64,000 nt of DNA, taken from contig DATIIB010000009.1 in the NCBI GenBank assembly GCA_035480055.1, forward strand, positions 213,068-277,067, read 5' to 3'. The first letter of the stretch is position 1; each line of letters starts with the position of its first letter. Positions 1,158-61,517 of this stretch are shown piece by piece. The notes below the pieces were generated by a model, which was given only the letters and a program-made list of their open reading frames with translations, did no database searches and had not been told where the DNA came from. The position numbers and the translations under genes are program-made. The stretch is from Candidatus Saccharimonadales bacterium. Lineage in GTDB: Bacteria > Patescibacteriota > Saccharimonadia > Saccharimonadales > DASZAF01.

Positions 1158-1673
1158 ATGATCAGCATGGTAGTTGCCGCAGATAAAAAAGGTGTGATTG
1201 GCCGCGAAGACCGTATTCCGTGGCGGCTAAAGGAAGATCTTGTGAACCTCCGCAACAAGACAAAAGGTAAACCAGTGATTCTTGGGCGAAAATCATACGA
1301 TTCGATGGCGTGGTACTACACCAAAAGCGGTAACCAGATGCCTGGCCAACTCTACGTGGTGGTCACGCACAATGCAACCTACGTTCCCAAATTCCCCAAT
1401 GCCGTGACTGCGCACTCCGTGCAAGAAGCGCTAGCGCTAGCCCAAAAAGACAACCCAGCCGAAGTCGTAGTCCTTGGCGGCGCCAGCATCTACCGCGCAT
1501 TGTTGCCGTACACCGATCGCATCTACCTCACCGAAGTGCAAGCCGAGGTCGCTGGCGATACCTCTTTCCCAGAGCTTGCCTCGACCGAATGGCAAGAAAC
1601 GGCTCGCATTCACCATACCAAAGATGACCGCAATGAATATGACTTCGACTTCGTCACCCTTGACCGAAAATAA
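1158..1673 (+). CDS. folA: dihydrofolate reductase
   Basis: MISMVVAADKKGVIGREDRIPWRLKEDL...ILGRKSYDS...VLGGASIY is typical DHFR. I chose the internal ATG at 1158 (1167 is an alternative) because the track ORF start at 1035 runs through the rplA terminator. Confidence 0.9.
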   Translation: MISMVVAADKKGVIGREDRIPWRLKEDLVNLRNKTKGKPVILGRKSYDSMAWYYTKSGNQMPGQLYVVVTHNATYVPKFPNAVTAHSVQEALALAQKDNPAEVVVLGGASIYRALLPYTDRIYLTEVQAEVAGDTSFPELASTEWQETARIHHTKDDRNEYDFDFVTLDRK

Positions 1674-2763
1674 GTTTGCCGCGAGCGACCGCCGCTTGGT
1701 GGAACGCATTCTGGCTGCCTACAACCTTCATGCCGCGCAGGTACTGCCACCGCAAAAAGGGTATCGCAATCAATCGTTTCCGATACTCCTGAATGATGGT
1801 CAAAAGATTAACCTAATTTTGTATAAGATCGAGCCGGGCATTGTGACCCGCATCAAAAACGCCAACCGCGTCGCAGATTATGCAGCAACGCATGGTCTGC
1901 CAGCCCGGCGAACCTTTCGGCCAAATATCATCCGCCTGACAAATGGCGCGCAAGAAAAATTTGGCTGTCTGTACGAGTACCTGCCTGGCGACACCATTCC
2001 GTGGGAAGCTTACACCCGCGCACATCTGAAGGTGCTTGGCCACACCATGGGCGAACTCCACCACGTACTGCAAGGTGTCTCGGTTGCACCCACAGTGACA
2101 GACGAATACACCAGCGCGCTCATGCGTATGCAGCGCTACTTTTGCGACGCAGCTGTGCAGCAGGCCATACGCACCAAACTCCAAGTAACATTGCCGCAAA
2201 CTATATTCGCCAACAACCTTCGCCTGCTTAAAATCTGCGAGAAACTACCCGGCCAGCAAACACTGCATATGGATTTTGTGCGAGGAAATATTCTCTTCCA
2301 AAATAGCGCAGTGCAAGCTCCCTGGCCTACTGAGCCGCCTGCAGACTGGCGTCATCCCCGCCAGAGAAGGCCACATCCTCGTGGCCTGAACGAGTCTGCT
2401 GGTGGTTTAGTAGGCCAGGGAGCCGTATACGAGAAGAATCTGCATATCTCCGGCATCCTCGACTTCGAAAAAACCGCCCACGGTCACCGCCTCTTCGACC
2501 TTGCGCGCACCTTAGCCTTCCTGCTGGTAGATTGCAAATACAAATCCGAAGCCGATATCTACCGCTTCTTCATCGAGTCCGGCTACTGCACTCGCGGCCG
2601 CATGCCACGTCCGCACGCAGAGCTCCTCGAGGCCCTGACTAATCTTTTTCTCCTCCACGACTTCTATAAATTCCTGCGTCATAATCCCTACGAGTCCCTG
2701 GCGCACAACGAACATTACCTTCGCACCCGCGATCTCCTTATAAAGAAGCGCCTTTTGCGATAG
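1624..2763 (+). CDS. aminoglycoside/homoserine-kinase-type (APH/ChoK family) phosphotransferase with a ~45-aa insertion
   Basis: Catalytic loop LHMDFVRGNILF and downstream ISGILDFEKTAHGHRLFDLA fit the APH-like fold. The start is uncertain: ATG at 1624/1633/1639 or TTG at 1660, overlapping the folA end. The insertion lies between the two motifs (see element 2317-2423). Confidence 0.7.
   Translation: MTAMNMTSTSSPLTENKFAASDRRLVERILAAYNLHAAQVLPPQKGYRNQSFPILLNDGQKINLILYKIEPGIVTRIKNANRVADYAATHGLPARRTFRPNIIRLTNGAQEKFGCLYEYLPGDTIPWEAYTRAHLKVLGHTMGELHHVLQGVSVAPTVTDEYTSALMRMQRYFCDAAVQQAIRTKLQVTLPQTIFANNLRLLKICEKLPGQQTLHMDFVRGNILFQNSAVQAPWPTEPPADWRHPRQRRPHPRGLNESAGGLVGQGAVYEKNLHISGILDFEKTAHGHRLFDLARTLAFLLVDCKYKSEADIYRFFIESGYCTRGRMPRPHAELLEALTNLFLLHDFYKFLRHNPYESLAHNEHYLRTRDLLIKKRLLR
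2317..2423 (+). repeat. 107-nt self-complementary three-way-junction element embedded in-frame in the kinase CDS
   Basis: Perfect 15-bp inverted termini: GCTCCCTGGCCTACT (2317-2331) and AGTAGGCCAGGGAGC (2409-2423). Pairing continues inward to 2346/2394 using G-U pairs valid only on the + strand. Two internal hairpins: 2346-2364 and 2368-2387. Confidence 0.75.
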
Positions 2764-2799
2764 AATAAAAGGAGCATAGCAACTGGAAGAGAGGGGAGC

Positions 2800-3357
2800 A
2801 TGGGACAATCCTGGAAGAAACGGCTGGTCTCGCAGAGCGACTTAATGACCCTGCACGACAAACTGAAAGAAAAAGACAAAAAGATCGTCTTTACCGCTGG
2901 CAGCTGGGATTTGATTCATGCTGGCCAGTGTCGGTACCTTGAGCGAGCCAAAGAAGAGGGCGACATATTAGTGGTCGGCATCAGCAGCAACGAAGCGATT
3001 CGCCGCGTCAAAGGCAGTAACAAACCGGTGCTAGACGAAAAAATCCGCGCCGAAATGCTGACATTTCTGCGCTCAGTCGACTTTGTCACCATCCTGCCAG
3101 AGCCCAGCTGCGCGCCCTCACTTGGCTTACTCAAACCCGATGTCTTCATTACCGTCAAAGAGGATTGGACCGAGGAATACAAAAAATCGCGCGAGTATAA
3201 AACCGTTATCAAATACGGCGGCGAAGTAAAGGTGGTCGATCGTCAATCCACAGCCATCTCCACCACCAAAATCATTCAGCGCGCCATTGGTGGCCACTTG
3301 GGTGATGTCTTTAAAGACTTTATGGAACTAAGAAAAGACCCATTAAAGGAGCGCTAA
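2800..3357 (+). CDS. cytidylyltransferase-family nucleotidyltransferase (RfaE domain II / TagD-like)
   Basis: IVFTAGSWDLIHAGQCRYLERAKEEGDILVVGISSNE resembles the GxFDxxHxGH nucleotidyltransferase motif, here HAGQ rather than HxGH. SD GAGGGGAG lies upstream. Confidence 0.7.
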   Translation: MGQSWKKRLVSQSDLMTLHDKLKEKDKKIVFTAGSWDLIHAGQCRYLERAKEEGDILVVGISSNEAIRRVKGSNKPVLDEKIRAEMLTFLRSVDFVTILPEPSCAPSLGLLKPDVFITVKEDWTEEYKKSREYKTVIKYGGEVKVVDRQSTAISTTKIIQRAIGGHLGDVFKDFMELRKDPLKER

Positions 3358-3358
3358 T

Positions 3359-3712
3359 ATGAAGCTTGCTACCAGAATTGTCCTCAGCATTGTGATAGGT
3401 ATGTTCCTCACGCTGGCTTCCTACGCGCTGGTTATCACCAAGATTACTGTGCATCATACTTCAGCAAATGAGATGTGCCAAAATGCTGGCGGACAAATCT
3501 GTCCAGAAGATGCTTCGTACGACGCGATTGTCGCCAAAAGAGGTTGGCCGTTAGTGACACGGCAAGCGGACACTACGCAAGAAACTGGCACCACGGGTAC
3601 GTCCATATCTAACAGCATCTGTGATATCGCGATCTATAGTGGCATCGTCTTTACCGTTGTGCAACTCATAAACATGTTCCGCACGTATAAGCTCAAAAAG
3701 TCCTCGAAGTAA
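3359..3712 (+). CDS. hypothetical small membrane protein
   Basis: 117 aa with hydrophobic N- and C-terminal segments. It is packed 1 nt after the upstream gene and 2 nt before the next, so operon context supports it. Confidence 0.5.
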   Translation: MKLATRIVLSIVIGMFLTLASYALVITKITVHHTSANEMCQNAGGQICPEDASYDAIVAKRGWPLVTRQADTTQETGTTGTSISNSICDIAIYSGIVFTVVQLINMFRTYKLKKSSK

Positions 3713-3714
3713 CC

Positions 3715-5259
3715 ATGTCCGATCTCACTCCCGAAGCTCAGCGCAAGCAAATCCAATACCGCGACGCCAGATTCACCAACCAATACGACGCGATCTGGCA
3801 AGGAGTGGGCAAGTGTGTCTTTTGCGACCTGCGCGATAAATATGTGATCCACGAAGAAAATGGCGTAGTGCTAACCATTACGCTGTTTGCGTACATCGAT
3901 GGCCACATGATGATCTTGCCCCGCCGCCATGTTGATTCACCCAAAGAGCTGACCAGCGAAGAATGGGAAGCGATTCGCAAAATGATGTACATTGCCCGCA
4001 AGCTGATCAAAAAAGTGCACAAGGTAAAGGGCATTCAGTTTGTGCAAAAGGAAGGCGCCGATGCGCAGGCAACCGTTGGTGGCCACTTGCACTACCACGC
4101 CGTGCCGTTTAACGCGCCCGATCTTAACGTCTGGAACTACCGCAGATTAACCTACACGCCGCTGGAAAATGCCCGGCTATATCAAAACGCGCGCAAAGAA
4201 ATTGCTAAACTCAGCGCCAAGTTTGATACCAAATATCAAGAGGAAGTCCCTGCCGAAACTGGTTCGCCATACGATCTTGATTGGTCCCAGCTGGCTTTTG
4301 GCAGCAAAAAACCTTTGTCCGCTTTGCAGGCAACCTTTATCGCCGCGCCGCGCGAATTGAGTTCCAAACGTCTGGCCAGTTTGGTTAAAACCTATCTGCC
4401 AAAGGGCAACATCGTGCTCGGCCTGGCCAAAGAGCAGTTTGTGGATGGGTTTGACGGCCAACCGCAATTCCGCACACTCCAAAAAACAAGCATCCAAAAA
4501 TTGCTTGATAAAATCAACGCCGCCAGCCCCACACACAAAATCTACACCCTCAGTTATTTTCAACGCGAAGCCAAATACATTCTGGAAAAAGCAGAGTTTC
4601 AAAAAGTAATCCTGGTAAACGGCTCCTGGTTCCGCAGCTTTCATACCCGCGAAGAATATTACACGCTGGCCAATCGGCAGCTGCCGTACGAATTAGTTTC
4701 GCCCTTTGTGGACGAAGACGAAGCGCGGGCCTACGAACAGCGCATTGCTCCAGAACTGCCCGTACCAAAGCTACGAAAGAATCTCACCGAAGCCGAAATG
4801 ATGCAGGCGGCTGCCGAAGCGGCCAAAAGCTCCTTTGATTACAGCTTCCAAACTGGCGTAGCCTTGGGCAAAAAAACCAAAGCCGGGTATTCGCTGCTGG
4901 CCACAACCTTCAACAAAGTGATACCGTTCCAAACCTACGCAATGCATTACGGCGCCTCGCGCGAAAAGCACTTTTCGCCGCCGCACGACCTCAACCACTA
5001 CGACGCCGTCCATGCGGAAGTGGAGTTGCTCGTCAAAGCACAAAAAGAGGGGACAAACCTTAAGGGGACCACGTTATTCATCAACCTACTGCCATGCCCA
5101 GCCTGCGCGCGGATGTTTTGCGAAACCGACATCAAGGAGCTTGTGTATGCCCACGACCATTCCGATGGGTATGCGGTGGAGATGTTGGAGAAGGAAGGGA
5201 AAACCGTGCGACGAATTACTTATACAACTGACTATGCGTTCCACAAGCCACAAAAATAG
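3715..5259 (+). CDS. fusion protein: N-terminal HIT-family nucleotide hydrolase/transferase, unknown middle domain, C-terminal CMP/dCMP deaminase
   Basis: N-terminus has CVFC...GHMMILPRRH...GGHLHYHAVP (HxHxHxx histidine triad). C-terminus has HAEVELL...LPCPACARMF (H-A-E and PCxxC zinc-deaminase motifs). About 175 aa between them are unassigned. Confidence 0.75.
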   Translation: MSDLTPEAQRKQIQYRDARFTNQYDAIWQGVGKCVFCDLRDKYVIHEENGVVLTITLFAYIDGHMMILPRRHVDSPKELTSEEWEAIRKMMYIARKLIKKVHKVKGIQFVQKEGADAQATVGGHLHYHAVPFNAPDLNVWNYRRLTYTPLENARLYQNARKEIAKLSAKFDTKYQEEVPAETGSPYDLDWSQLAFGSKKPLSALQATFIAAPRELSSKRLASLVKTYLPKGNIVLGLAKEQFVDGFDGQPQFRTLQKTSIQKLLDKINAASPTHKIYTLSYFQREAKYILEKAEFQKVILVNGSWFRSFHTREEYYTLANRQLPYELVSPFVDEDEARAYEQRIAPELPVPKLRKNLTEAEMMQAAAEAAKSSFDYSFQTGVALGKKTKAGYSLLATTFNKVIPFQTYAMHYGASREKHFSPPHDLNHYDAVHAEVELLVKAQKEGTNLKGTTLFINLLPCPACARMFCETDIKELVYAHDHSDGYAVEMLEKEGKTVRRITYTTDYAFHKPQK

Positions 5260-5473
5260 CCTCATCATCAACAAGCCTGTAGTGTGCTCGCCAGTCACCG
5301 CCAAAAGCGATGGAGCGGTAGCCTATCCATTGACCGCTGAGAGGATGATTATACAGGTCTGGATGCATAGGATCGATCATGAATAGTGCAAGTGCCTTTT
5401 TCAGGCGGTCGCGTTGAACTGGTCGTAGCTTAAAATAGTCCTTCTCAAAAGACTTGTGACGACGTATGCGCAT
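5216..5473 (-). CDS. yafQ: type II toxin, RelE/YafQ-family mRNA interferase
   Basis: 85 aa. FEKDYFKL...HPLSGQWIGYRSIAFGGDWRAHYRL...ACGTHSQLY matches the YafQ/RelE pattern. It starts 2 nt after the antitoxin gene ends. Its 3' end overlaps the convergent deaminase gene by 44 nt. Confidence 0.8.
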   Translation of the reverse strand: MRIRRHKSFEKDYFKLRPVQRDRLKKALALFMIDPMHPDLYNHPLSGQWIGYRSIAFGGDWRAHYRLVDDEAIFVACGTHSQLYK

Positions 5474-5475
5474 AC

Positions 5476-5772
5476 TTAAGCGTTCTTATCTAAGTCGCTG
5501 AAAAAGTCATCAGTATTACTGTAGGCTTTAGATATATTCTTGCCTGCTTTAATGTCGCCATCTGCCTTACGCATGATGTCTTCCAGGTAAGGTGTGGGCT
5601 CAAGTGCAGTTGTGAGCCGCACTTCGCCATTACGGAGCATCTGCTTAATTTGAGCGGCTGCAAGAGTCGTGGCGGGTATGCCAATTTTATCAGCAAACGC
5701 CTGTAGTTCGCGGCGAGTTGCCTCATCAAGTCGGATGCTCATACTGGTGGTCTTAGTAGTTGCTTTACTCAT
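5476..5772 (-). CDS. dinJ: type II antitoxin, RelB/DinJ family
   Basis: 98 aa. The N-terminal ribbon-helix-helix-like MSIRLDEATRRELQAFADKIGIPATTL resembles DinJ, and it sits directly upstream of the toxin gene. Confidence 0.7.
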   Translation of the reverse strand: MSKATTKTTSMSIRLDEATRRELQAFADKIGIPATTLAAAQIKQMLRNGEVRLTTALEPTPYLEDIMRKADGDIKAGKNISKAYSNTDDFFSDLDKNA

Positions 5773-5778
5773 GCACTA

Positions 5779-5808
5779 ATTGTATATCTTTTGTGCATTA
5801 GTTGTCAA
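5779..5808 (-). promoter_or_regulatory. promoter/operator of the dinJ-yafQ pair, apparently leaderless
   Basis: On the minus strand: TTGACA (5808-5803), 18-nt spacer, TACAAT (5784-5779), then only 6 nt to the ATG (5772) and no SD. ACTAAT (5775-5780) and ATTAGT (5797-5802) form an inverted repeat spanning the promoter. Confidence 0.6.
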
Positions 5809-5896
5809 TAGATTCTCCCAGCCTAAGTGAAGCAATTGTTGCAATGTGAGAGGTTTAATACCGCTCTCTCTGTCCAAAATAGAGTATACTTAACCC

Positions 5897-6706
5897 ATGG
5901 CCTACCCCGAATACCAATACCTCAAACTCATGGCCGACATCCTGAAGGATGGCAAAAGCAAACCGTCGCGGGGGATTCACGACCTCAAAGCGATATTTGG
6001 CTATCAACTGCACTTTGATCTGCGCCACGGATTTCCGCTACTAACCACCAAAAAGATGCCATTCACTTTGTTGCTGCACGAGTTGCTGTGGTTTATTTCG
6101 GGCGAAACTAATATTCAATATCTGCATGACCACAATATTCGTTATTGGGACGGCTTTGCGGATGAAGATCTCAACCTCGGCCCAGTCTACGGTGCCCAGT
6201 GGCGTCATTGGAAGGGCCAAGATGGGCAGGAATTTGACCAGCTGCAATGGGCGATCGACGAGATCAAAAACAATCCTGACTCCAAAGCGATTATTGTCAG
6301 CGCTTGGAATGTGGCCGACCTCAAAGCCATGCGCCTGCCGCCATGCCACACAATGTTTCAGTTTGATGTCACCCAAGGCAAGTTGCGGCTGCAACTGTAT
6401 CAGCGCTCGTCGGACGTTTTTTTGGGTTTGCCGTTTAACATCGCGCAGTACGCCATGTTGCTCTACATGGTGGCGCACCTGACTGGCCTAGAGGCGCGCG
6501 AACTGGTGGTATCTATTGGCAGCGCGCACCTCTACAAAAACCATCTTGATGTCGCCAAAGAGCAGCTTCGCCGCAAACCGTTCCCATTTCCTAAACTCAA
6601 AATTAGCGGCGATATCAAGAGTATCGACGATTTTCGCGAAGAACACTTTACGCTGGAAAGTTACGAAGCTCATCCGCGGATTAAGACCGACTTGGTGATT
6701 CTGTAG
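5897..6706 (+). CDS. thyA: thymidylate synthase (ThyA type)
   Basis: GFPLLTTKK, LHELLWFISGETN, LPPCHTMFQF and QRSSDVFLGLPFNIAQYA are diagnostic ThyA motifs. Confidence 0.97.
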   Translation: MAYPEYQYLKLMADILKDGKSKPSRGIHDLKAIFGYQLHFDLRHGFPLLTTKKMPFTLLLHELLWFISGETNIQYLHDHNIRYWDGFADEDLNLGPVYGAQWRHWKGQDGQEFDQLQWAIDEIKNNPDSKAIIVSAWNVADLKAMRLPPCHTMFQFDVTQGKLRLQLYQRSSDVFLGLPFNIAQYAMLLYMVAHLTGLEARELVVSIGSAHLYKNHLDVAKEQLRRKPFPFPKLKISGDIKSIDDFREEHFTLESYEAHPRIKTDLVIL

Positions 6707-6718
6707 TATCATACCAGC

Positions 6719-7252
6719 ATGAAGAAAATAGTTGTTGCCTCCAAAAACCCGGTAAAAACCCAAGCCACGTTGGACGGCTTTACCAAAATGTTCCCCAGCG
6801 AGACTTTTACGATCGAAGGGATAGCTGGAATCTCAAACGTTAAAGACCAGCCCGATAGCGATCAAGAGACATTCCTCGGCGCCTTCAACCGAGCCACCAA
6901 CGCCAGCCAGGCAGTGCCTGACGCTGACTTTTGGGTTGGACTGGAAGGCGGCATCGAAATCAAAAAAGGCGAAATGGAAACATTCGCCTGGATGGTTATT
7001 CGCGATCCCAGCGGACGGATTGGCAAAGGCCGGACCGGGGCACTGTTTTTGCCGCCGCAGATTGCCGAACTGATTCAGGAAGGCAAAGAGCTTGGCGAAG
7101 CTGACGACATTGTCTTTGGCAAAACCAATTCCAAGCAAGCCAACGGGGCAGTTGGGCTACTGACCCACGATGTGATTACTCGGGCGCAGTATTACGAGCA
7201 AGCGGTGGTGTTTGCTCTTATCTCTTTTACGAATCTCGCGTTGTATCCTTAA
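6719..7252 (+). CDS. yjjX: non-canonical purine NTP phosphatase (inosine/xanthosine triphosphatase, YjjX family)
   Basis: 177 aa. VASKNPVKTQAT...DQPDSDQETFLGAFNRA...FWVGLEGGIE resembles the YjjX family. Confidence 0.7.
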   Translation: MKKIVVASKNPVKTQATLDGFTKMFPSETFTIEGIAGISNVKDQPDSDQETFLGAFNRATNASQAVPDADFWVGLEGGIEIKKGEMETFAWMVIRDPSGRIGKGRTGALFLPPQIAELIQEGKELGEADDIVFGKTNSKQANGAVGLLTHDVITRAQYYEQAVVFALISFTNLALYP

Positions 7253-8438
7253 CCAACCGCTGGTACGCAGCCAGATGTTCCTGGCACATTCGGTGCAGGG
7301 TAAAGCGTGCTTCAAAGTCAGCGCGGCAGGCATGCCGGTCAAAGGTGGGGATGCGTGCAAAGGCTTTGGCCAGGCGCGCTGCTGTTTGGATAGCTTCAAC
7401 CTTTGACGTTGTTTTGCTCGTTCGGGGATCAACCTGCGTGACAAACACTTTTTCTACCACCGCACCGGTCTGTCCATCTTGCACCACCTCGGGGATTGCG
7501 CCAGAATCCAAACCGATAATCGGAGTTCCACATGCCAAAGCTTCGATCATCACCATCCCAAACGGCTCCGCAAAGGTTGATGGAACCACCAGCGCGGCCG
7601 CATTGCCCAAGAATTCTTGCCGTACAGCGTTGCCGCTAAGATGCCCCACATATACAATGTGCGGGTCGCTCAGTTCAGGCTCAATCTGCTCCTGCCAATA
7701 GGCATCTTTGTGGCCAGCATAATGTTTACCAGCGATCTTGAGAGTCAGCGGCTGGCGAGCCGTTTGGTTATATGTTTTGACCGCTGCGATCGCAATGTGC
7801 AACCCTTTGGGTTCAATGATCCGCCCCAAATATGCCAGATATTTTCCAGCAGATGTGTAGTTGGGTGTAAAGGCATCTTCGGCAAGGCCGTGATAAATAT
7901 TGCCAACCCAATGTGTATCAGCGGGCATGCCGCGCCGCTGGGCGTAGGACATGGAAAGCCAGTTGAGGTGGGCGTATTTTGGAAACACATTTTTGTACTT
8001 CACCAAAAAATTGAATGGATCGTGGTGAGTAAAAACCACCGGCACTTGGCAAAATTGGGCAAACGGCAGCGCCGTGTCTTCCTCGTTGGTGTAGATATGC
8101 ACCACATCCAGCTCGCCGCGATTGGCGCGGGCAAAGGCTGCAGCAATCAGTTCGCTCTGGACTTGGCGGGCGAGAGTCACAAAGGTAAAAGGATGTTTTT
8201 TAAGCAGCTCCATATATGTATCGCCGCGCCCAGCCAGTTCTTGCTCAAAGTAACTCATGTCCGCGGTCACATTGCTGACGGGCGTATCAACAGGTCCTGG
8301 TGAAAAAAGGGTGACTTCGGCGCCACTCTTTTGTAAACCTTCAGCCAAATCAAGTGCCAACTGTCCTGGTGAAAAAATCACCTGCGGCAGAATGTCCTGG
8401 TGCAAAAAAATGTGGGGAACAACGAGGCCGATGCGCAT
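7227..8438 (-). CDS. glycosyltransferase family 4 (GT-B, retaining)
   Basis: 403 aa. C-terminal STFAEPFGMVMIEALACGTPIIGLDSGAIPEVV is the GT4 E-x7-E region. It overlaps the yjjX 3' end by 26 nt. Confidence 0.85.
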   Translation of the reverse strand: MRIGLVVPHIFLHQDILPQVIFSPGQLALDLAEGLQKSGAEVTLFSPGPVDTPVSNVTADMSYFEQELAGRGDTYMELLKKHPFTFVTLARQVQSELIAAAFARANRGELDVVHIYTNEEDTALPFAQFCQVPVVFTHHDPFNFLVKYKNVFPKYAHLNWLSMSYAQRRGMPADTHWVGNIYHGLAEDAFTPNYTSAGKYLAYLGRIIEPKGLHIAIAAVKTYNQTARQPLTLKIAGKHYAGHKDAYWQEQIEPELSDPHIVYVGHLSGNAVRQEFLGNAAALVVPSTFAEPFGMVMIEALACGTPIIGLDSGAIPEVVQDGQTGAVVEKVFVTQVDPRTSKTTSKVEAIQTAARLAKAFARIPTFDRHACRADFEARFTLHRMCQEHLAAYQRLVKDTTRDS

Positions 8439-8486
8439 GAGAGTGTTTACCTTACTCGACCACCCAACTGTCGACGATCTTCAAAA

Positions 8487-8627
8487 CTAAGCGTCTTTAC
8501 CGTCAGAGGTTGGCTTGGCCTCGACTTCCTCATCGTCGTCGTCCAAAAAGCTCAGGTCAAGGTCGTCCGTGCCCATATCGTCATCGCCGTAGTAGCCATC
8601 GGCTTGCGTGTCGTCAGTCTGTGTCAT
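8487..8627 (-). CDS. small, highly acidic hypothetical protein (46 aa, below the ORF-track cutoff)
   Basis: My own translation: MTQTDDTQADGYYGDDDMGTDDLDLSFLDDDDEEVEAKPTSDGKDA*. GAGGG lies 8 nt upstream of the ATG. The ORF fills the gap upstream of the GT4 gene. Confidence 0.4.
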   Translation of the reverse strand: MTQTDDTQADGYYGDDDMGTDDLDLSFLDDDDEEVEAKPTSDGKDA

Positions 8628-8667
8628 TGCTGTACCCTCGTTATGTCTCTTGCATTATACTAAACGG

Positions 8668-9285
8668 ATGAAGCGCGGCAAATACATTGTGATCGAAGGC
8701 TTGGATGGCTCGGGCAAAAGTACCCAGCAGCAGCGGTTGCTGCACACGCTTGGCGACCAAGCTATCGGAGTGCGCGAACCTGGCGGCACGCCAATGGCAG
8801 AGGCGATTCGAACGCTTATCAAAGATGGCAGCATACCGCGCGCACCTCGAACAAATGTCTTTTTGTTTTCTGCAGCCCGGGCTGAGCTGACCGACACCAT
8901 CATTCGTCCAGCGATTGGCGCGGGCAAGCATGTGGTGGCGGATCGCAATTGGCTTTCGACGGTTGCGTACCAGAGTGCAGAAGGCGTAAGTAACATGGAC
9001 GAAATCTACCAGCTCTGTAAAGCCGCGACCGAAGAACTCTTTACACCTGACTTACTTATTTTTATCGATACACCGGTCAAGATTTGTTGGCAGCGTTTAC
9101 AAAAGCGCGGCAGTACGCAGGGTGATTACTTTGACGAGCTAGGCGAGAACTATTTTGCCCGCGTCCGCGAAGTGTATTTGGAACACCTCCAAAAACTTCC
9201 GCGTTACGAGATCGTGGACGGCAGCGGTTCGATAGAAGAAATTGCCGCCAAGCTTCACACGCTCGCGACAGCTTTACTAAGCTGA
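8668..9285 (+). CDS. tmk: thymidylate kinase
   Basis: YIVIEGLDGSGKSTQ P-loop and ADRNWLSTVAYQ (DRY-like motif). I chose ATG at 8668. TATACT at 8656-8661 sits 6 nt upstream with no SD. Confidence 0.9.
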   Translation: MKRGKYIVIEGLDGSGKSTQQQRLLHTLGDQAIGVREPGGTPMAEAIRTLIKDGSIPRAPRTNVFLFSAARAELTDTIIRPAIGAGKHVVADRNWLSTVAYQSAEGVSNMDEIYQLCKAATEELFTPDLLIFIDTPVKICWQRLQKRGSTQGDYFDELGENYFARVREVYLEHLQKLPRYEIVDGSGSIEEIAAKLHTLATALLS

Positions 9286-14348: not shown

Positions 14349-14377
14349 TTGACACTGAACTAGCTGTAGTGTAAAAT
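14349..14377 (+). promoter_or_regulatory. strong sigma-70-type promoter for the rplJ-rplL operon
   Basis: TTGACA (14349-14354), exact 17-nt spacer, TAAAAT (14372-14377). Confidence 0.8.
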
Positions 14378-14384
14378 ACTTGTA

Positions 14385-14717
14385 GTCATCACCAAAGACC
14401 GTCGCGAGGCTCCGCCTTTAAGAATGCGACCGAGGTTATGAAACATACCGATTGTTTTATATACAAGAAAGTCTTTGGTCGTGCGAGAATCAAAGACTTT
14501 TTGTTTTTGTACGTTAAAAAATAGGTCGAAACGTAAGTGACTATGCACCGCCTGAAGGCCATTTCAGATACTTTTCTGCAGACCTATCCACAGCAAACCT
14601 GTGCAAGAATTTCGCTTTAGCGAATTCGCACAGGTGCAGCGAGGACAGAAGCAAAGAAAACGTTCTGAAATGACCGAATGAGGACATACGATCATCAAAC
14701 AATAAGGAGAAAACTGC
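14385..14717 (+). promoter_or_regulatory. ~330-nt structured rplJ 5' leader (candidate L10-type autoregulatory leader)
   Basis: Lies between the promoter and the rplJ SD (AAGGAG, 14704-14709). It contains mutually exclusive antiterminator/terminator pairings (14391-14399 with 14471-14479, versus 14468-14477 with 14491-14500) and a long hairpin at 14597-14635. Confidence 0.55.
14468..14510 (+). terminator. intrinsic attenuator terminator inside the rplJ leader
   Basis: AAAGTCTTTG (14468-14477) pairs perfectly with CAAAGACTTT (14491-14500), followed by TTGTTTTTGT. Confidence 0.65.
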
Positions 14718-15725: not shown

Positions 15726-18700
15726 ATGACATTTGAACTCAACGGCTTTAGAGATACTGCTCAAGTTAACAGTGAACTAGAGACGCCATTTACTAGATAC
15801 GAAGACCCAGACAACGCTGAGGATAATGACGAAGCCACAGTTCAGGCAGAGCTAGCCGAGTCAATCGCAACTGACGGACGACCAGTCTCGACTGTCCTTG
15901 AAGATCCAGAAGGAGTCCCATCTCTCTGGATGCCCGCAGTTGGGCAGTCCGTAGTCAGTGAGACTGTTACTTTTGCTGCTGAGAGTGAGAGAGAATTGCC
16001 GAAAGAGATCATAAAGGTTAGTGATAGCGTGACGCCTCCGAAGGCAGGCGAAGAGTCTTCATCGTCGTCAAGCCCCGCCGCAGATTCTGCCGCAACACCT
16101 GAAGCAGGCGCCGGAAGTGGCGGTGCAGGGAGACCGCCTCTTCCTCCAGACGGTGGTAACGGCTCATCGGACGAGAGCGGCGAAGAACCAGAGGGATCGG
16201 ATAAAACACCCGAAACCGCCAAAGCTCCAACCATGAACGCAATCGAAATTGCTGGCGCCTTACAGGGGGTTATTGCGGATATTGCAAACCGAGACTTTGA
16301 TCTCGACATGGTCCAAGAAGAAACCGTCAAAGCTATTGGCGAAAAGATTATTGCAGGAGAAACCGAAGGCCATATAGATTCTGCGACAAGCTCGGGAAAA
16401 ACCTTGCAGATTGCCCTACTTGCCGAGGCCGCCGTCAAGGCGGGTAAGCGAGTACACATCATGGCGCCAAGTAAACCAATTGCTGATCAAATAATTGGCG
16501 CTGACGGCAAAACAGGTATTGGGCGATTCACCAAACTTCTTGAAGAAGTGGTGGTAACTCAAAACTACGACGGTCGGCACGGTGATGCTCAATCTCCCGT
16601 GGTTGTGAGTACATACGCAGGATTCCTCAATGAAGCCAAAGCCATAAAAGAGAATGGTGGCAGACTAGGCGAGTTCGGCGTTATTCTTGGTGATGAATGC
16701 CACAGAAGCCTAGGCGACATTACCTCAAAAGCCTTGTATAGCTACATGCCCGAAGCGGTAAAGGTTGGTTTTTCAGCAACACCTGATTACGCCGAAGATC
16801 GGAAATCAGAAGAAATCTGGGGCGAGCGCTGGTTTGAATTCTCACTGCGGAGCTCCATTGAGGTAGGTAAGACAGCACCGACGAGATCATTGTTAATTAG
16901 TACAGATGCTACGCTTAGCTTAGACGATCCTCGAAGCGAATTTACCGAAAGAGAGCTCGCACCGCTTATTGATAACTTTGAACGTAACGGTATTGCACTG
17001 CGAATGTCACAAGATTTCGTGAATGCAGGACGTCAAGGTATTATCGCTTGCGTTCCTGGACGTGGCAACGCTCATGCAACCATAATGGCCGAGCTCCTTT
17101 CGCAAATGGAAACAGGTGATCGCACCATAGTCGCCAAAGATATCGGAAGTCACCTACACCCCGATGAGCAGCGACGACGCCTTGAAGACTACCGGGAAGG
17201 AAAAATCGACATCCTCACTTTTACTCGTGCCATCGAGGAGGGGTGGGACAGTGAACAGGCCAGTTTTTGTCTTAACCTTGCGCCCACAACTTCTGAAGTA
17301 CGAACAAAGCAGCTTATGGGCAGAATAGGCCGTGTGAAAGCAAGTGGCCTGGAAAGTATTTATGTTGACTTCCTTGATGACAAAATAGGCGTCAATAAAC
17401 AACAGTACACCGCGGCACATGCGCTTGAGCTTGATGATATCGATCTGGATCGTGTCCTTGGATGGGGAAATGCCTCAGAGAAAACAAGCCCACCCGATTT
17501 GCGTCCTATCCTTAGACCTGAGATTTACGAACGCTTATTGAGAGTGCAGGGCAAGACTCTCCTTGACGCGCTCGTCAGCAAGTCAGGGTCGCCTATCGAC
17601 CCACTAGTTGCTCAATGGGAGGGTACGCTTAAACGAGAAGGGCTGCCTGAAGAATTACCCGAGAATCCCGTCTTTCCGACAATACTTGCCAAAAAGTACG
17701 AGCAAGCTGCAGAGATGCTCCGCCGCCAAAACGGCGTCGAACCAACTAGCGATGAAATTGCTGATTTCCTCGTTGAAAGGCGCATCCCTAAAAACCAAGA
17801 ACAGGCTGTACGAGAATTCGGAACACGCATCGACTGGCCTGACACCCTCGCCAAAATACCCGATGATATGCACGAATCTGTAGAGGATATTGTGATGCGC
17901 TTAGCACTCTCAGACGCTTTAGATAAGGCTATGTCTGATTTAGATGAACGCGAAGTCAAAGTAGTTCGGGCACGATTTGGCCTCGGCCTTGCTGATGAAA
18001 CTGACCCCGAAAAGAGAGACGAGGAAAGGGACGAGCTCATCAAATTAAGTCGTCAGAGTCCTCTTACTCTAGACCAAATAGGAATAGTGCTGGGCGTCCG
18101 TAGAGAGCGCGTCCGCCAAATTGAGAGTAAGGCAATGGCCAAGCTGCGCCACATCAGTCGTTCTGGGCTAATGACTGATTTTGTTCAAGAATACTCCAGT
18201 GAAAATAGACAAGCTCTTCCGCCCTGGGCAACAACCACTCGAAAGTCCGAGTCTGCGCAATCTCCTTCGCTCTTCCCAAGCCTACCCGGCGCTGGAGTGC
18301 CCGTACGTGACCCTCGCGATCATCGACCATACCTCACACGCGTGCAGGAGACTGCCAGGGCTGCTGCAGATGGTTGGCTTAAAGCCAAAAAGGCGAAGCT
18401 TTCTCAATTCAGAAAGGAAGTGCTCGAATCATCCGAAGACTACCTTAAAACCCTTGCAGCGCATGCCTCTCCTTCGGGCTATTTTCTTAACGGTCAATAT
18501 TATAGCCGAGAGGCTGTTGCGAATCCCGGATATATGAAAAGGGCGGCTAAGATATACGACTTTAACGAACTCCGCGCTTTTCGGTTAAGGGCCTACAATG
18601 TGCCGATCGACGAAGAGCTGCAACCGCTCCTTGCTCTTCGTGAACGAATAATGAGTCGGGGTATCGATTCCCAACATCGTGAATCCCGCGAGGCAACCTT

Positions 18701-18815
18701 AACTGTGGTAAATGAAAGAATTCGCGCCCTCCAAGCATATCGTCACGAGATAAATAAGCAGATCAAAGAATACGTCGACGCATCAAGAACAAGGCCGCAA
18801 CGCTTCAGACTCTGA
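15726..18815 (+). CDS. 1029-aa multidomain protein: acidic disordered N-terminus, SF2 DExH helicase core, sigma-70 region 3/4-like module, unknown C-terminal domain
   Basis: Walker A DSATSSGKT (from nt 16377), GDECHRS, FSATP and QLMGRIGR (helicase motifs I, II, III, VI). aa 638-812 carry EPTSDEIADFL and REVKVVRARFGLG...LTLDQIGIVLGVRRERVRQIESKAMAKLRH (sigma r3/r4-like). No region-2 signature was seen. Confidence 0.8.
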   Translation: MTFELNGFRDTAQVNSELETPFTRYEDPDNAEDNDEATVQAELAESIATDGRPVSTVLEDPEGVPSLWMPAVGQSVVSETVTFAAESERELPKEIIKVSDSVTPPKAGEESSSSSSPAADSAATPEAGAGSGGAGRPPLPPDGGNGSSDESGEEPEGSDKTPETAKAPTMNAIEIAGALQGVIADIANRDFDLDMVQEETVKAIGEKIIAGETEGHIDSATSSGKTLQIALLAEAAVKAGKRVHIMAPSKPIADQIIGADGKTGIGRFTKLLEEVVVTQNYDGRHGDAQSPVVVSTYAGFLNEAKAIKENGGRLGEFGVILGDECHRSLGDITSKALYSYMPEAVKVGFSATPDYAEDRKSEEIWGERWFEFSLRSSIEVGKTAPTRSLLISTDATLSLDDPRSEFTERELAPLIDNFERNGIALRMSQDFVNAGRQGIIACVPGRGNAHATIMAELLSQMETGDRTIVAKDIGSHLHPDEQRRRLEDYREGKIDILTFTRAIEEGWDSEQASFCLNLAPTTSEVRTKQLMGRIGRVKASGLESIYVDFLDDKIGVNKQQYTAAHALELDDIDLDRVLGWGNASEKTSPPDLRPILRPEIYERLLRVQGKTLLDALVSKSGSPIDPLVAQWEGTLKREGLPEELPENPVFPTILAKKYEQAAEMLRRQNGVEPTSDEIADFLVERRIPKNQEQAVREFGTRIDWPDTLAKIPDDMHESVEDIVMRLALSDALDKAMSDLDEREVKVVRARFGLGLADETDPEKRDEERDELIKLSRQSPLTLDQIGIVLGVRRERVRQIESKAMAKLRHISRSGLMTDFVQEYSSENRQALPPWATTTRKSESAQSPSLFPSLPGAGVPVRDPRDHRPYLTRVQETARAAADGWLKAKKAKLSQFRKEVLESSEDYLKTLAAHASPSGYFLNGQYYSREAVANPGYMKRAAKIYDFNELRAFRLRAYNVPIDEELQPLLALRERIMSRGIDSQHRESREATLTVVNERIRALQAYRHEINKQIKEYVDASRTRPQRFRL

Positions 18816-18874: not shown

Positions 18875-20578
18875 ATGCTGAGCTCCTATTTTGAAGCTGC
18901 TTCCGAAACGAACGAACGCCTTCCTCACCTTAACCATGCGTTGGACGGAGCGGCCACGGACACTGCGGAAAGTGACGATGAAGTGACTTCACAAGCAGCA
19001 GTTGCAGCAGCCATCTCTGAAAATCAATTATCTCCGGAAAGTATCCTCGTCGATGAAGCGGGAGGTAGTACAAATGGACCTGAGTTACCATCACCCAGGA
19101 CCAACAGAACCATTGAGTCAATCGATCCTGGTGCAACCACTCCGGGTCCAATTGCGGTAAGCACACGGGTGACGATTAACGTCCGAAGTGAGCCTCAACA
19201 ATCTGCGGCAGACTCCAGAGTTGCCCCGGCCGATCCGGTCGAGAATCAAGCACCTTCGCCCGATGCAAGCGGCGATAGCGGCGCAGGGGAGCCTCCGTTT
19301 CCCCCGGACGGCTACGCGGAGATGGAAGAAGGTGATAACCAGCCGGAAGATGGCGAACACGATTTCGTCAATACGCTGATACCGACCCAGAAGGGACTCG
19401 AAGCGGCAGGCATAGCGGACTTTGAGAAAAAACTCTCGCAAGAAGGCATGCCAGAGGAGCTACCGGACAATCCGGTGTTTACTCTTGATATTGCCGCAAG
19501 ATATGAACAGGCTGCAGATGCACTACGCCAAGAAAATCAAACCGAGCCCACCAGTGATGAAGTTGCCGAGTATCTTGCTTCGCGGCAAGTGCGCGAAGAC
19601 ATAGTTGCGGCAGCGCGTGAACATGGTACGCGTGTGGAAGTGCCAGAAACGCTTGCTGAGCCTCAATCGCTTGAAGAGCAGGTAATTGACGGGTACATAA
19701 GCGAAGAGCTATACAATATGCTTGATAAACTGCATGAATCATCACCACGCGAAGCGATGGTGATCAAAGCACGTTTCGGCCTTGACTACGATCGTCCAGT
19801 TGCCCCACCAGGCGACGAAGGCCTCGAGGAAGTGATAGCTAAGAGCTACGGCAATTCCCTTAGCTATCACCAAATTGGCAGGATGGTGGGAGTGAGCGGC
19901 CCGACCGCTCGTCAGATGGAGTCTAACGCGCTAAAAATGTTACGTGAAGCAGGATTCTCAGGACGACTTGGCGACTACGTCATCGACACTGAGGACACGA
20001 CACGGTGGGATCCGCCAGAGACGATTTACCACACGCCCAATCTCACTTCTCCCATTGCCCATTTGCCCGGCGGAGATGTGCCTCTGTCCGATGCAGCTAC
20101 TCAAAAGCCCTATCAACTCCGCGTGGCAGAGGTTGCCAAACGTGCCGCACAAACGTGGTCTAAGGAAAACATAGATTCACTCGCCCGTTTTCACGATGCG
20201 CCCCGAGTTTCAGAAGGGCTTAGAGCAGTTGCAGCAACAACAAAGCCAGTAGGGTATTATCATGATGGCTACTACTACAACGCTGATGAGCTCCCAGCTA
20301 ACGCTCCCGATGCTCAAGCGGTGTACGATCTCGATCAACTACGCGTTACGGAACTCACGGCTATAAAAACCAACATTGCTCGAGAACTTGAGCCCTTGCA
20401 GATGCTCCGACACCGAGTGGAGCTAAAGCCGGCACGCCCTGAATCACGACAGGCCGCCCTCATTATCCTCGATCATAGGATTTCAGCACTTGAGAAATAC
20501 CAAGTCTGGCTAGATGCCTATCTCGGCATACATACTGACAAGATCCAAAAAGGCAGATCAACCCGAAGCGTGCTTTAG
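18875..20578 (+). CDS. 567-aa helicase-less paralogue: acidic N-terminus, sigma-70 region 3/4-like module, same unknown C-terminal domain
   Basis: Shares with the upstream gene GAGEPPFPPDG (vs GAGRPPLPPDG), EGMPEELPDNPVF (vs EGLPEELPENPVF), EPTSDEVAEYL, ARFGL, an HTH-like LSYHQIGRMVGVSGPTARQMESNALKMLRE, and the C-terminal domain (KPYQLRV, GYYHDGYYY, YDLDQLR). Confidence 0.75.
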   Translation: MLSSYFEAASETNERLPHLNHALDGAATDTAESDDEVTSQAAVAAAISENQLSPESILVDEAGGSTNGPELPSPRTNRTIESIDPGATTPGPIAVSTRVTINVRSEPQQSAADSRVAPADPVENQAPSPDASGDSGAGEPPFPPDGYAEMEEGDNQPEDGEHDFVNTLIPTQKGLEAAGIADFEKKLSQEGMPEELPDNPVFTLDIAARYEQAADALRQENQTEPTSDEVAEYLASRQVREDIVAAAREHGTRVEVPETLAEPQSLEEQVIDGYISEELYNMLDKLHESSPREAMVIKARFGLDYDRPVAPPGDEGLEEVIAKSYGNSLSYHQIGRMVGVSGPTARQMESNALKMLREAGFSGRLGDYVIDTEDTTRWDPPETIYHTPNLTSPIAHLPGGDVPLSDAATQKPYQLRVAEVAKRAAQTWSKENIDSLARFHDAPRVSEGLRAVAATTKPVGYYHDGYYYNADELPANAPDAQAVYDLDQLRVTELTAIKTNIARELEPLQMLRHRVELKPARPESRQAALIILDHRISALEKYQVWLDAYLGIHTDKIQKGRSTRSVL

Positions 20579-23182: not shown

Positions 23183-23312
23183 GCCAAGCTTTTACTCTCT
23201 CCAAAGAGACTGTGAAATCGGTTCCCAAACCGATTTCAGCCGAACGCCATATAAAATTTCCTGCTCGGAAGTTTTATATGAGAGTGTGCTCTAGGAGAGG
23301 GTAAAGCTTGGC
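23183..23312 (+). other. 130-nt three-way-junction structured element (candidate ncRNA, cis-regulatory leader or palindromic insertion) upstream of dnaX
   Basis: Outer helix 23184-23202 with 23294-23311 (18 bp, one bulge). Hairpin 23213-23238 (11 bp, CCCA loop). Hairpin 23248-23280 (14 bp). The G-U pairs are valid only on the + strand. Confidence 0.5.
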
Positions 23313-23392
23313 CCGAAACACGCAATATGCAATTGTGCTCCTAGTCTCGCCAGTGCCAGTGTATAATGAAGAAAATACCTGGAGGAGATACT

Positions 23393-24907
23393 GTGGGGCA
23401 AGCGCTATACCGAACCTACCGCCCAAAGTCGCTGGCTGAAGTTGTGGGCCAAAAACATGTGACCCAAACCCTGGCCAACGCTATTAAAGAAGGGCGCATC
23501 AGTCATGCCTATCTATTAACAGGCCCGCGTGGCGTGGGTAAAACCAGCATTGCCCGGATTTTGGCGCACGAAATCAACCAGCTGCCCTATACCGACGAAA
23601 CACAGCATTTGGATATCATCGAAATCGATGCTGCCAGCAACAACGGCGTTGAAGACGTTCGTGATCTGCGCGAAAAAATTCTGCTGGCCCCAACCAGCGC
23701 GAAATATAAAGTATACATCATAGATGAGGTGCACATGCTCAGCAATGCAGCCTTCAACGCGCTACTCAAAACGCTCGAGGAACCACCAGCGCATGCAATT
23801 TTTATTCTAGCCACCACCGAGGTACACAAACTGCCGGCAACCATAATTAGCCGCACCCAGCGCTTTCAGTTTCAACCCGTCTCGCGAGATATAGTAGTAA
23901 AGCACCTCAAACACATTGCGGCCAAAGAGCACGTCACCATCGACGACGATGCGCTACACCTGATAGCCGAACATGGCGACGGCGGAATGCGCGACAGTAT
24001 CTCGCTCCTTGACCAACTCCGCAGCGTAGCGCAGGATGGCGTCACGGCTGAAACAGTGGAATCCACGCTTGGCTTGGCACCACGAGCAGTGCTCGAAAAA
24101 CTCCTGACCCACTTGCAAGCCGGCAAGGTCCAAGAGGCGATTACCGCGTACGAGCAGTTGCTCGGCAAAGGTATCGCGGCGCCAGCCTTAGCCAGCCAGC
24201 TGATTGCCATCATGCGCGTCTTGGCCATGCAGCATCCCAAACTCTACCATTTGATCGACCAGCTGATTGAAGTTCCTCGCGCCTACAATCCTCGGCTCAA
24301 AATGGAAGTGGTGCTTGCGACATTTGCGCTGGATCACGCCGACCAATCAGCGCCTCCAGCGTCATCGCACACACCGACCCATACACCACCAGCTATCAAA
24401 AAGGAGCTGCCCAAAGAATCCAAAAAAGCACCAGCGCCAGCAGCCGCAAAAGCGGTCGCATCGCCACCTGCCACGCCGCAAGCAACGGCCAAGACAGATG
24501 CCCCAGCACCAACTGCTTCCACCGAACTCGGCGAGCTCACTGATGATCTGTGGCACCACATCATGGCTGAAGCAAAAGATAATGGTCCCACGCTCTACAC
24601 CTTAATTCGCCAGGCGATGCCCTATTTTGATGTCGAGAAACAACTGCTCACCATTACCTTTAGATTCCCGCTGCACCAAAAACGTCTGGACGAACAACGT
24701 CACAAGCAAGCATTTGGCAATGTGCTGCAAAAAATCTGGGGCGGAGTACCTGAGATGCAGATTATTGTGAATAAAGATGCGGTCAAACACATCAAGCCAG
24801 CCACACCACGTGCCGCCGAAGACATCGAAGAAGCGTTGCCCGAGGAAGCCAAAGCGACCAGCAGTGTGATGGATTTAATGGGTGGCGGAGAAGTCGTCAG
24901 TGTCTGA
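23393..24907 (+). CDS. dnaX: DNA polymerase III subunit gamma/tau
   Basis: GPRGVGKTSIARILA (Walker A), IIDEVHMLS, SRTQRFQF. I prefer the GTG at 23393, preceded by GGAGGAG. The ATG at 23366 overlaps a TATAAT box (23362-23367). Confidence 0.93.
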   Translation: MGQALYRTYRPKSLAEVVGQKHVTQTLANAIKEGRISHAYLLTGPRGVGKTSIARILAHEINQLPYTDETQHLDIIEIDAASNNGVEDVRDLREKILLAPTSAKYKVYIIDEVHMLSNAAFNALLKTLEEPPAHAIFILATTEVHKLPATIISRTQRFQFQPVSRDIVVKHLKHIAAKEHVTIDDDALHLIAEHGDGGMRDSISLLDQLRSVAQDGVTAETVESTLGLAPRAVLEKLLTHLQAGKVQEAITAYEQLLGKGIAAPALASQLIAIMRVLAMQHPKLYHLIDQLIEVPRAYNPRLKMEVVLATFALDHADQSAPPASSHTPTHTPPAIKKELPKESKKAPAPAAAKAVASPPATPQATAKTDAPAPTASTELGELTDDLWHHIMAEAKDNGPTLYTLIRQAMPYFDVEKQLLTITFRFPLHQKRLDEQRHKQAFGNVLQKIWGGVPEMQIIVNKDAVKHIKPATPRAAEDIEEALPEEAKATSSVMDLMGGGEVVSV

Positions 24908-60443: not shown

Positions 60444-61448
60444 ATGGTGCAGAAAGCCAAGAAGACGGTCAAAAAATCAAAAGCAAAAAGCGGTAAAAAG
60501 CAGTCGTGGCTCCCCGGCCAGCCCAGCCCAAGCGCCAAGCGGCGGAATATCCTGGCCGCACTCTTTGTGGGAGCGGTGATTGTGATCGGGAGCATCGTGC
60601 TCGCTGTGTCGCATGCGGCCAGTTCTCAACCAGAAGGCCAGATCAAGCTCGCTAACAACGCCCTCTGTCTGAACAACCAAAAGGGCGAACAAGAAAAAGG
60701 CAATCCCGTGCAACTGCAAACCTGCGGACACGGCAGCCAGCAGCAGTGGAAGTTGAGCGGTAAGCACATTATGCTCGATAGTGATGAAGGCAAGCTTTGC
60801 TTTGCGGTCCGCCGAGCAGGAACCGGGAACACCGCTGAAGTCCATGGTCATATTTGGACCTGTGACGGTGGCAATCCTCAACAATGGACTCCGCATAATG
60901 ACGGATCGCTCGTAAATACTCCGACCGGCCTCTGTCTCCAAGCTGAAAGTGCCACCAGCGGTGCTGGCGTTGTCTTGGCAACATGTAACAATAGCGCGCT
61001 CCAGCACTGGACCATGCCTGTCAAAACGACTCCCCCTCCTTCACATACAGTCACACCAGAAATGAAGAAGATCTTTACTAAGTACGCTAAGGATCATTAC
61101 CCAACCTGGAAGGTTACCAGCATGCAGTACGATCCACAATGTGACGGCAGCGAATCATATGATGTCGCGCTGACCAATGCCAAAAAAGAGCACCTTTCGA
61201 TCATCCTTGACCGCAATGGCACCTACATTCAAAAAGAGGTCGATGTGCCATTTAGCAAAGCGCCAGCCATCCTCACCAGCACCCTCAAGGCACATTACTC
61301 AATGTACACTTACGGCGGCACCTACGAGCAGATCACCATGGCAAATAGCGATCTGCGCTACCTGGTTGACCTGGCTTCTGGCAAAAAGAGCAGCGAGCTG
61401 ATTCTCTCGCAAACTGGCATCAAGCTCTGCCAGACCGCGTTTGAATAG
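60444..61448 (+). CDS. secreted or anchored ricin-type lectin with C-terminal PepSY-like domain pair
   Basis: Lys-rich N-terminus, TM, then VSHAASS, as in 52644-54173. QxW repeats (SQQQW, PQQW, LQHW). The C-terminal assignment is weak. Confidence 0.55.
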   Translation: MVQKAKKTVKKSKAKSGKKQSWLPGQPSPSAKRRNILAALFVGAVIVIGSIVLAVSHAASSQPEGQIKLANNALCLNNQKGEQEKGNPVQLQTCGHGSQQQWKLSGKHIMLDSDEGKLCFAVRRAGTGNTAEVHGHIWTCDGGNPQQWTPHNDGSLVNTPTGLCLQAESATSGAGVVLATCNNSALQHWTMPVKTTPPPSHTVTPEMKKIFTKYAKDHYPTWKVTSMQYDPQCDGSESYDVALTNAKKEHLSIILDRNGTYIQKEVDVPFSKAPAILTSTLKAHYSMYTYGGTYEQITMANSDLRYLVDLASGKKSSELILSQTGIKLCQTAFE

Positions 61449-61463
61449 AAATCTCGGACGCAT

Positions 61464-61495
61464 AAAAAGACTCCGCCTCGGCGGAGTCTTTTTTG
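61464..61495. terminator. bidirectional intrinsic terminator between convergent genes
   Basis: AAAAAGACTCCGCC pairs with GGCGGAGTCTTTTT around a 2-4 nt loop, followed by TTTTTT. Confidence 0.85.
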
Positions 61496-61517
61496 TATGG
61501 TAGAAGACAAGGTGAAG

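Follow-up and report, generated by a model that had tools for sequence, protein, structure and literature searches.

Here we report a near-perfect palindrome of 107 nt inside a kinase gene of Candidatus Saccharimonadales bacterium, in a 64-kb stretch of contig DATIIB010000009.1 (assembly GCA_035480055.1) that was analysed as a whole and is called the window below, all positions being counted from its first letter. The element is located at 2317-2423 on the + strand, is almost fully self-complementary and folds as a three-way junction. As the original prediction had claimed, it sits between the codons of the catalytic loop HMDFVRGN and those of the DFE motif in a gene for an APH-like kinase, and the reading frame stays open across it. 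On balance, we lean towards the view that the insert is a small selfish palindromic element, comparable to the MITEs (miniature transposable elements with inverted repeats), the REPINs or the Rickettsia palindromic elements (RPEs), which would be tolerated in a surface loop of the kinase. The features concerned are the following.

1639-2763, + strand: host gene, a small-molecule kinase of the APH family (PF01636), 374 aa, conserved in Saccharimonadales and adjoining the dihydrofolate reductase (DHFR) gene
2266-2289, + strand: codons of the catalytic loop HMDFVRGN
2317-2423, + strand: palindromic three-way-junction element, 107 nt, 64% G+C
2317-2347, + strand: left arm, terminal inverted repeat of 31 nt, its outermost 15 nt perfectly complementary to the right end
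2348-2362, + strand: internal hairpin A, GGCG/CGCC with a 7-nt loop (alternative 6-bp form at 2346-2364)
2368-2387, + strand: internal hairpin B, AGGCCAC/GTGGCCT with a 6-nt loop
2393-2423, + strand: right arm, terminal inverted repeat of 31 nt, which includes AGTAGGCC
2317-2424, + strand: 36 extra codons, APWPTEPPADWRHPRQRRPHPRGLNESAGGLVGQGA, residues 227-262, with a predicted local confidence (pLDDT) below 50 at 237-261 and no secondary structure
2461-2469, + strand: codons of the DFE metal-binding motif

Structure of the palindromic element

The 15-nt termini, GCTCCCTGGCCTACT and AGTAGGCCAGGGAGC, are perfect inverted repeats, as had been read from the letters, and this is their sole occurrence in the window. 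The outer stem has 31 positions (2317-2347 with 2393-2423). Of these, 27 are Watson-Crick pairs, 2332/2408, 2334/2406 and 2337/2403 are G-T/U, and 2340/2400 is a T/T mismatch, which agrees with the original description of a stem of about 30 bp having one T/T and the same three G-U pairs. The core between the arms has 45 nt and holds both hairpins. Hairpin B is found where it was predicted, while the position 2346-2364 given for hairpin A is an alternative form of 6 bp that competes with the innermost two pairs of the outer stem, the minimum free energy (MFE) structure having it at 2348-2362. For the + strand RNA, the MFE and the centroid structures are both this same three-way junction.

The fold energy, for which a comparison with shuffled controls had been proposed, is indeed exceptional. 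The + strand RNA of the element folds at -79.0 kcal/mol, with a z-score of about -10 (-9.8 to -10.4), and none of the 200 shuffles is as low, while the - strand RNA folds at -67.3 kcal/mol (z -7.3); single-stranded DNA gives -40.0 kcal/mol (+) and -35.9 kcal/mol (-). Among all 110-nt and 140-nt sliding windows of the 64 kb, the element is the top fold outlier, and it is so on both strands. Its G+C content is 64% vs 51% in the window. No Rfam family matches the element at gathering thresholds, and at E<=10 there are just matches of the long-hairpin type, like microRNA precursors, with 22-28 bits vs cut-offs of 58-93. The identities of hammerhead, signal recognition particle (SRP) RNA and attC were dropped because their core motifs are absent both in the Rfam search and on inspection. 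In addition, no terminator-like site (a G+C-rich hairpin followed by a T-run) is present within 1400-3000 on either strand, and there are no promoter features in the element.

The element is an insertion in an intact kinase gene

Alignment of the orthologous kinases shows that the insert is lineage-specific and missing from all relatives. The loop from ...NILF to GILDFEK has 51 residues in the window kinase vs 6-21 in 115 of 120 homologues; with 6-17 residues also counted in homologues, the figure of about 10-15 given in the original prediction is essentially right. The closest relatives, with 57-58% identity outside the loop, have 6-14 residues. Deletion of 2317-2424 (108 nt) joins QNSAVQ to VYEKNLHIS in frame, and deletion of 105 nt gives QNSAVQAVYEKNLHIS, also in frame. 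After either removal a loop of 15-16 residues is left, like the loops of homologues such as ASAQAGDRFVEKGLALS. The net insertion therefore amounts to 108 nt (2317-2424), or to 105 nt should the GC or AGC at the end represent a duplicated target. As 107 cannot be divided by 3, the palindrome differs from the net insertion and the boundaries are ambiguous by 1-3 nt; in the earlier claim of an in-frame insert of 107 nt, the open frame stands and the length has to be corrected. The element is free of stop codons in one of the six combinations of frame and orientation, namely the one in use, which fits, on sequence grounds, a selection filter for insertions that preserve the open reading frame (ORF).

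The host protein matches PF01636, contains the catalytic loop HxDxxxxN as well as the DFE motif, and is predicted to adopt the kinase fold. Its homologues number about 1,300, those with a name being from Candidatus Saccharimonadales, Patescibacteria or candidate division TM7. In a 25-sequence alignment, the window kinase keeps every one of the 71 invariant positions. The AlphaFold model has a pLDDT of 87.6 and a pTM of 0.84, local values falling under 50 solely at residues 1-9 and, inside the insert, at 237-261, and the insert is flanked by the strands 218-222 and 268-273; the nearest solved folds are YtaA, homoserine kinase type II, macrolide/aminoglycoside phosphotransferases and amicoumacin kinase. 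The insert peptide is thus predicted to be a disordered Pro/Arg/Gly-rich stretch of 35-36 residues at the tip of a beta-hairpin. With the ORF intact, the 71 positions kept and the model confident outside the insert, the kinase gene looks functional, and the option of a disrupted kinase, which had also been considered, is not supported.

The element is limited to this species. The host protein and the locus are identical in a 317-kb contig of GCA_964479845.1 and in the Logan runs SRR9179562 and SRR9179560, with 0 mismatches across 5.7-12.8 kb of overlap between the NCBI contig and the contigs of the two runs. The protein HSX28791.1, from a third-party-annotated metagenome-assembled genome (MAG), is the identical kinase with a different start call. 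P0121 was rejected as a diverged near relative, being the same protein as the window kinase with another start call; no gene record exists for it.

Other insertions at the same loop

The loop has received other insertions as well. Besides the window kinase, four homologues have large loop inserts of unrelated sequence, namely P0091 (a loop of 58 residues), P0035 (44), P0102 (40) and P0052 (35). Each of the long-loop homologues has short-loop proteins as nearest relatives, except P0091 and P0102, which are mutually closest. The inserts at the loci of these four are as follows.

L001 (P0091): two inverted copies of a hairpin unit of about 30 nt, CGTCATyCCGGwCyTGAwCyGGrATCCAGT; z -6.3
L020 (P0102): homologous to the L001 doublet but decayed, with about 80% identity when the two are aligned directly; z -0.7 (+), -2.6 (-)
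L003 (P0052): small outer stem around two hairpins (three-way junction); z -3.8 (+), -4.6 (-)
L002 (P0035): 90-nt insert relative to the 85%-identical empty-site relative L022, weakly structured; z about -2

In L001 and L020, the REP-like unit (after the repetitive extragenic palindromic sequences, REPs) is CGTCATTCCGGACTTGATCCGGAAT with variants, which forms a translated inverted doublet at L001:3643-3721 and L020:5625-5710, with the peptides RHPG...SK...IPxQVxND. A solo copy of this unit is found in an intergenic spacer at L020:3465-3489. The intergenic copy together with the loop doublets shows that dispersed REP-like hairpin repeats exist in Saccharimonadales and have entered the loop. Separate acquisition of the inserts in L001 and L020 was rejected in favour of one shared event, because their identity of 68% (codon-aligned nucleotides) is within the range found elsewhere in the gene (mean 64%, 95th percentile 79%). 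The unit hairpins of the two loci differ by three compensatory double changes, and the long-range pairing of the doublet is decayed in L020 (z -0.7). The window insert was also compared with this unit, and kinship was rejected: only the 9-mer CGTCATCCC is common to both, which we judge to be chance, and the pattern of the L001-type unit has no match in the window.

A clean case of an insertion is the filled/empty-site pair L002:1222-1353 and L022 (P0035 and P0119, 85% identical), in which the insert starts with a short hairpin, AGTACTGCCACTGGCAGTAT. On the whole, sequence comparison counts at least four independent in-frame insertions in the loop, of roughly 55-110 nt, among the 120 sequences. 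Several of them are palindromic, not all, and the window insert is the most extreme.

Interpretation and alternative explanations

Of the three explanations originally offered, a miniature palindromic mobile element in a surface loop, a sense-strand RNA structure and a disrupted kinase, the mobile element is the best supported, in that an insertion and a disordered loop are found, though no second copy, transposase or clear duplication was seen that would show its mobility. The original interpretation is thereby supported in part. In this scenario, a non-autonomous palindromic DNA element would have inserted in the kinase gene, in the codons for the beta-hairpin tip that separates catalytic loop and DFE motif. 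It would have survived there because the loop is solvent-exposed and tolerant of length and because it entered in the sole stop-free combination of frame and orientation among six. The element would now be translated as a disordered Pro/Arg/Gly-rich excursion, with the fold and the catalytic residues preserved. As a side effect, the mRNA may carry a hairpin of -79 kcal/mol that would hinder ribosomes and could plausibly serve as a substrate of RNase III. The G+C content above that of the window looks like a sign of foreign origin, and the one open frame in six like that of a selection filter; further support comes from an unrelated second three-way-junction palindrome in the same genome (23183-23315, described below), from the repeated independent insertions at this loop, among them a REP-like doublet, and from the precedent of in-frame intragenic MITEs.

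Several results weigh against this interpretation. No second copy of the element is found in the window or in the adjacent 8.4 kb upstream and 9.1 kb downstream (81.5 kb in total). Search with an arm 20-mer in 185,579 GTDB representative genomes, the source genome not being among them, gives 12 single-arm chance matches, mostly at one orthologous Paenarthrobacter site and none with the partner arm. The two-arm pattern has a single match in the JGI metagenomes, L021, which is unrelated, and viral contigs, phages and plasmids give chance-level matches at most (arm search and BLASTN). The 36-aa peptide, searched by index-free HMMER in 1.84 billion representative proteins, has 0 matches, a weak negative, as it covers one frame and the window kinase (P0001) is apparently clustered under a representative without the insert. 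The further copies of the termini that the original prediction had proposed to look for are thus found neither in the 81.5 kb of contig nor in the collections searched. Among about 40 window proteins, all housekeeping, there is no Pfam domain of a transposase, RAYT or integrase. No convincing target-site duplication flanks the element: the candidates GC or AGC are too short to tell from chance, 81 combinations of offsets at k=3 giving about 1.3 chance matches. Furthermore, the L002 insert is weakly structured, and the permissiveness of the loop, rather than a property of palindromes, may be the cause of the recurrence. It is thus from anatomy and analogy that we infer arrival by transposition of a mobile element, which would have no function of its own.

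L021 was rejected as a copy of the element, being a folded-back actinobacterial coding sequence at a contig end, that is, an assembly artefact. At L021:920-1010 (Ga0075015_100223590), a perfect fold-back of 90 nt stands at the end of a 1,010-bp contig, and such artefacts mimic palindromic elements.

Other origins of the palindrome have to be weighed against transposition. It is unlikely that it was made in situ by an accident of replication or repair (priming by fold-back, or an inverted duplication through a template switch), maybe atop an earlier smaller insertion. Such an accident would agree with an element that is single-copy in all places searched, with the absence of a transposase from the window and of any clear target-site duplication, and with arms that are young, 27 of the 31 pairs being still Watson-Crick; however, no match to either arm exists in the flanking gene or elsewhere in the 81.5 kb, the loop is complete (15-16 residues) once the insert is removed, so that no ancestral arm is evident, the G+C content is 13 points above the local background, and the 45-nt core has two further hairpins, whereas fold-back events usually yield a plain hairpin. 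Still less credible, to the point of being negligible, is an artefact of assembly or amplification (a chimeric fold-back). Fold-backs do occur in metagenome assemblies, as in L021 at its contig end, but the element lies inside a 317-kb contig with both flanks collinear to those of homologues, the frame is preserved and the arms are not copies of adjacent sequence; moreover, it was recovered identically from two separate sequencing runs and two MAG assemblies, one of them the NCBI MAG, which makes an assembly artefact very unlikely.

Two further explanations give the insert a function. That it is a sense-strand RNA, the hairpin being kept, whatever its origin, for a role in the mRNA (processing or decay by RNase III, or a translational pause) over the kinase and the downstream nucleotide genes, we regard as quite unlikely. 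The + strand folds 11.7 kcal/mol better than the - strand, and out of four imperfect pairs three read as G-U on the + strand (A-C on the other), with p about 0.05 if changes are neutral and one in four preserves pairing. This preference weakly favours the sense-strand role originally proposed; but G-T wobbles also stabilise hairpins of single-stranded DNA, so the asymmetry of strands is not specific to RNA, and in three of these four pairs both partners are third-codon positions, as drift under protein constraint would give. No relative has the element and all copies are identical, so there is no evidence from covariation, and neither an Rfam family nor terminator or promoter features are found. 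For the analogous insert at the other loci, the three compensatory double changes between L001 and L020 speak for such a role, whereas the decayed long-range pairing of the doublet in L020 speaks against it. An adaptive protein insertion, in which the Pro/Arg-rich peptide would itself have been taken into use, perhaps for docking or regulation near the active site, and the palindrome would be a leftover of its origin, is more doubtful again. The open frame, the intact gene, the concentration of imperfections at synonymous sites, the position beside DFE and the retention of long inserts in the loop by several lineages are all in line with it; yet the peptide is predicted to be disordered, no similar segment is found in the 1.84 billion representative proteins, the inserts of different lineages are unrelated in sequence, and a near-perfect palindrome implies little time for adaptation. 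With about the same low probability, the loop would be a preferred site for the landing or retention of palindromic elements, either by site targeting or by selection for an mRNA hairpin that tunes expression of the DHFR/ThyA/dCMP-deaminase cluster, e.g. via RNase III. The window element would then be a recent, near-perfect case of a regulatory device that recurs, as opposed to neutral junk.

If the selfish mobile element is indeed the explanation, selfish palindromic DNA can colonise coding genes in the small, streamlined genomes of Saccharibacteria and the candidate phyla radiation (CPR), as in Rickettsia. The kinase loop would then be a natural test bed for the tolerance of insertions and an example of the origin of a peptide segment, and it would be a warning for the annotation of CPR proteins. 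A new mechanism would be opened only if the reading at the RNA level or that of site targeting is correct. Among the literature found by full-text search, no title or abstract reports such elements in the phylum of Saccharimonadales.

Gene neighbourhood and other structured sites in the window

The kinase lies in a neighbourhood (window 1160-9285) with DHFR, a PF01467 cytidylyltransferase-like protein, HIT/dCMP deaminase, ThyA, an NTPase and thymidylate kinase. A nucleotide-metabolism neighbourhood is also present at six related loci (L001, L002, L003, L020, L022 and L023), with varying gene content. This cluster suggests a kinase whose substrate belongs to the salvage of nucleotides or cofactors and is not an antibiotic. 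A gene for a YafQ/ParE-type toxin, with a small antitoxin-like gene upstream, is wedged in (5216-5772, - strand) where the dCMP-deaminase fusion gene and thyA adjoin.

Besides the kinase insert, one other locus in the window is extreme on both strands.

23183-23315: second palindromic element, intergenic, upstream of dnaX (23366-24907), 133 nt, 47% G+C

It has terminal inverted repeats of about 20 nt, GCCAAGCTTTTACTCTCTCC and GGAGAGGGTAAAGCTTGGC, around two perfect hairpins of 11 and 14 bp, folds at -66 kcal/mol (z -7.0) and has a terminator-like hairpin on one side and the dnaX promoter region on the other. In architecture it is like the kinase insert (an outer stem of about 20 bp with two hairpins), while it differs in sequence, length (133 nt), G+C content (47%) and its intergenic placement; kinship in sequence was considered and rejected, as no similarity was found. 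No Rfam family matches it even at E<=1. The position upstream of dnaX is where ffs often lies. This locus may represent either another palindromic insertion or a non-coding RNA that has gone unrecognised.

Other sites of the window are listed for completeness. The spacer at 61379-61500 between convergent genes is structured, with a perfect 14-bp hairpin and A/T-rich flanks (61464-61493); it has just weak, terminator-driven Rfam matches and is probably a bidirectional terminator. The L10 leader (RF00557) at 14374-14512, upstream of rplJ, is the sole Rfam family in the window that reaches its gathering score, and no tRNA gene is found in the 64 kb. Two adjacent genes, 15726-18815 and 18875-20578, encode large proteins, each with a Sigma-70 region 4 domain, which in the former is fused to a ResIII/SNF2-type helicase, an unusual combination.

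Comparison with known systems

The RPEs are described as multi-copy families, with 44 copies in R. conorii and each with a conserved peptide, in an account that summarises Ogata et al. 2000 (PMC10969869), and the in-frame intragenic MITEs documented there include the RPEs and intragenic ERIC elements that create in-frame fusions (PMC10969869). The window element resembles the RPEs, which are palindromic elements of about 100-150 bp lying in frame in unrelated housekeeping genes and adding a peptide at a site compatible with the fold, with the host functional; it, too, is an in-frame palindromic insertion in a coding gene at a fold-compatible site. Unlike the RPEs, it is known in one copy, no family is shown, and its host phylum is that of Saccharimonadales in the CPR.

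With the MITEs of the Correia/NEMIS, ERIC and RUP types, the element shares its size, the long terminal inverted repeats, the lack of an ORF of its own and the long hairpin that forms when it is transcribed. Its length is within the MITE range (about 50-500 bp), there is no transposase ORF and the only open frame is that of the host gene, and the arms of 31 nt, with 27 of 31 positions Watson-Crick and perfect ends of 15 nt, are terminal inverted repeats as in MITEs. RUP also has 107 bp. The differences are the target-site duplication (TA in Correia and RUP), the multiple copies and the partner insertion sequence (IS), none of which is shown for the window element, so that its membership among the MITEs is unproven.

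The REP/BIME/REPIN group is similar in another respect, that is, an inverted pair of arms forming a hairpin of about 100 nt. REPs carry a conserved GTAG at the 5' end, and GTAGGCC is present in each arm of the window element, whose overall shape is doublet-like, while its single arms are unconvincing as REP hairpins alone. The loop inserts of L001 and L020 are like REPs in being genuine doublets of a short hairpin unit that is dispersed. However, REPs are typically extragenic, with tens to hundreds of copies and a RAYT gene, whereas no RAYT is seen in the window and no further copies of the element exist in the 81.5 kb. Taken together, membership of the element in any of these families is unproven; by analogy, it would behave like an RPE or an intragenic ERIC-MITE and appears to be built like a MITE or REPIN.

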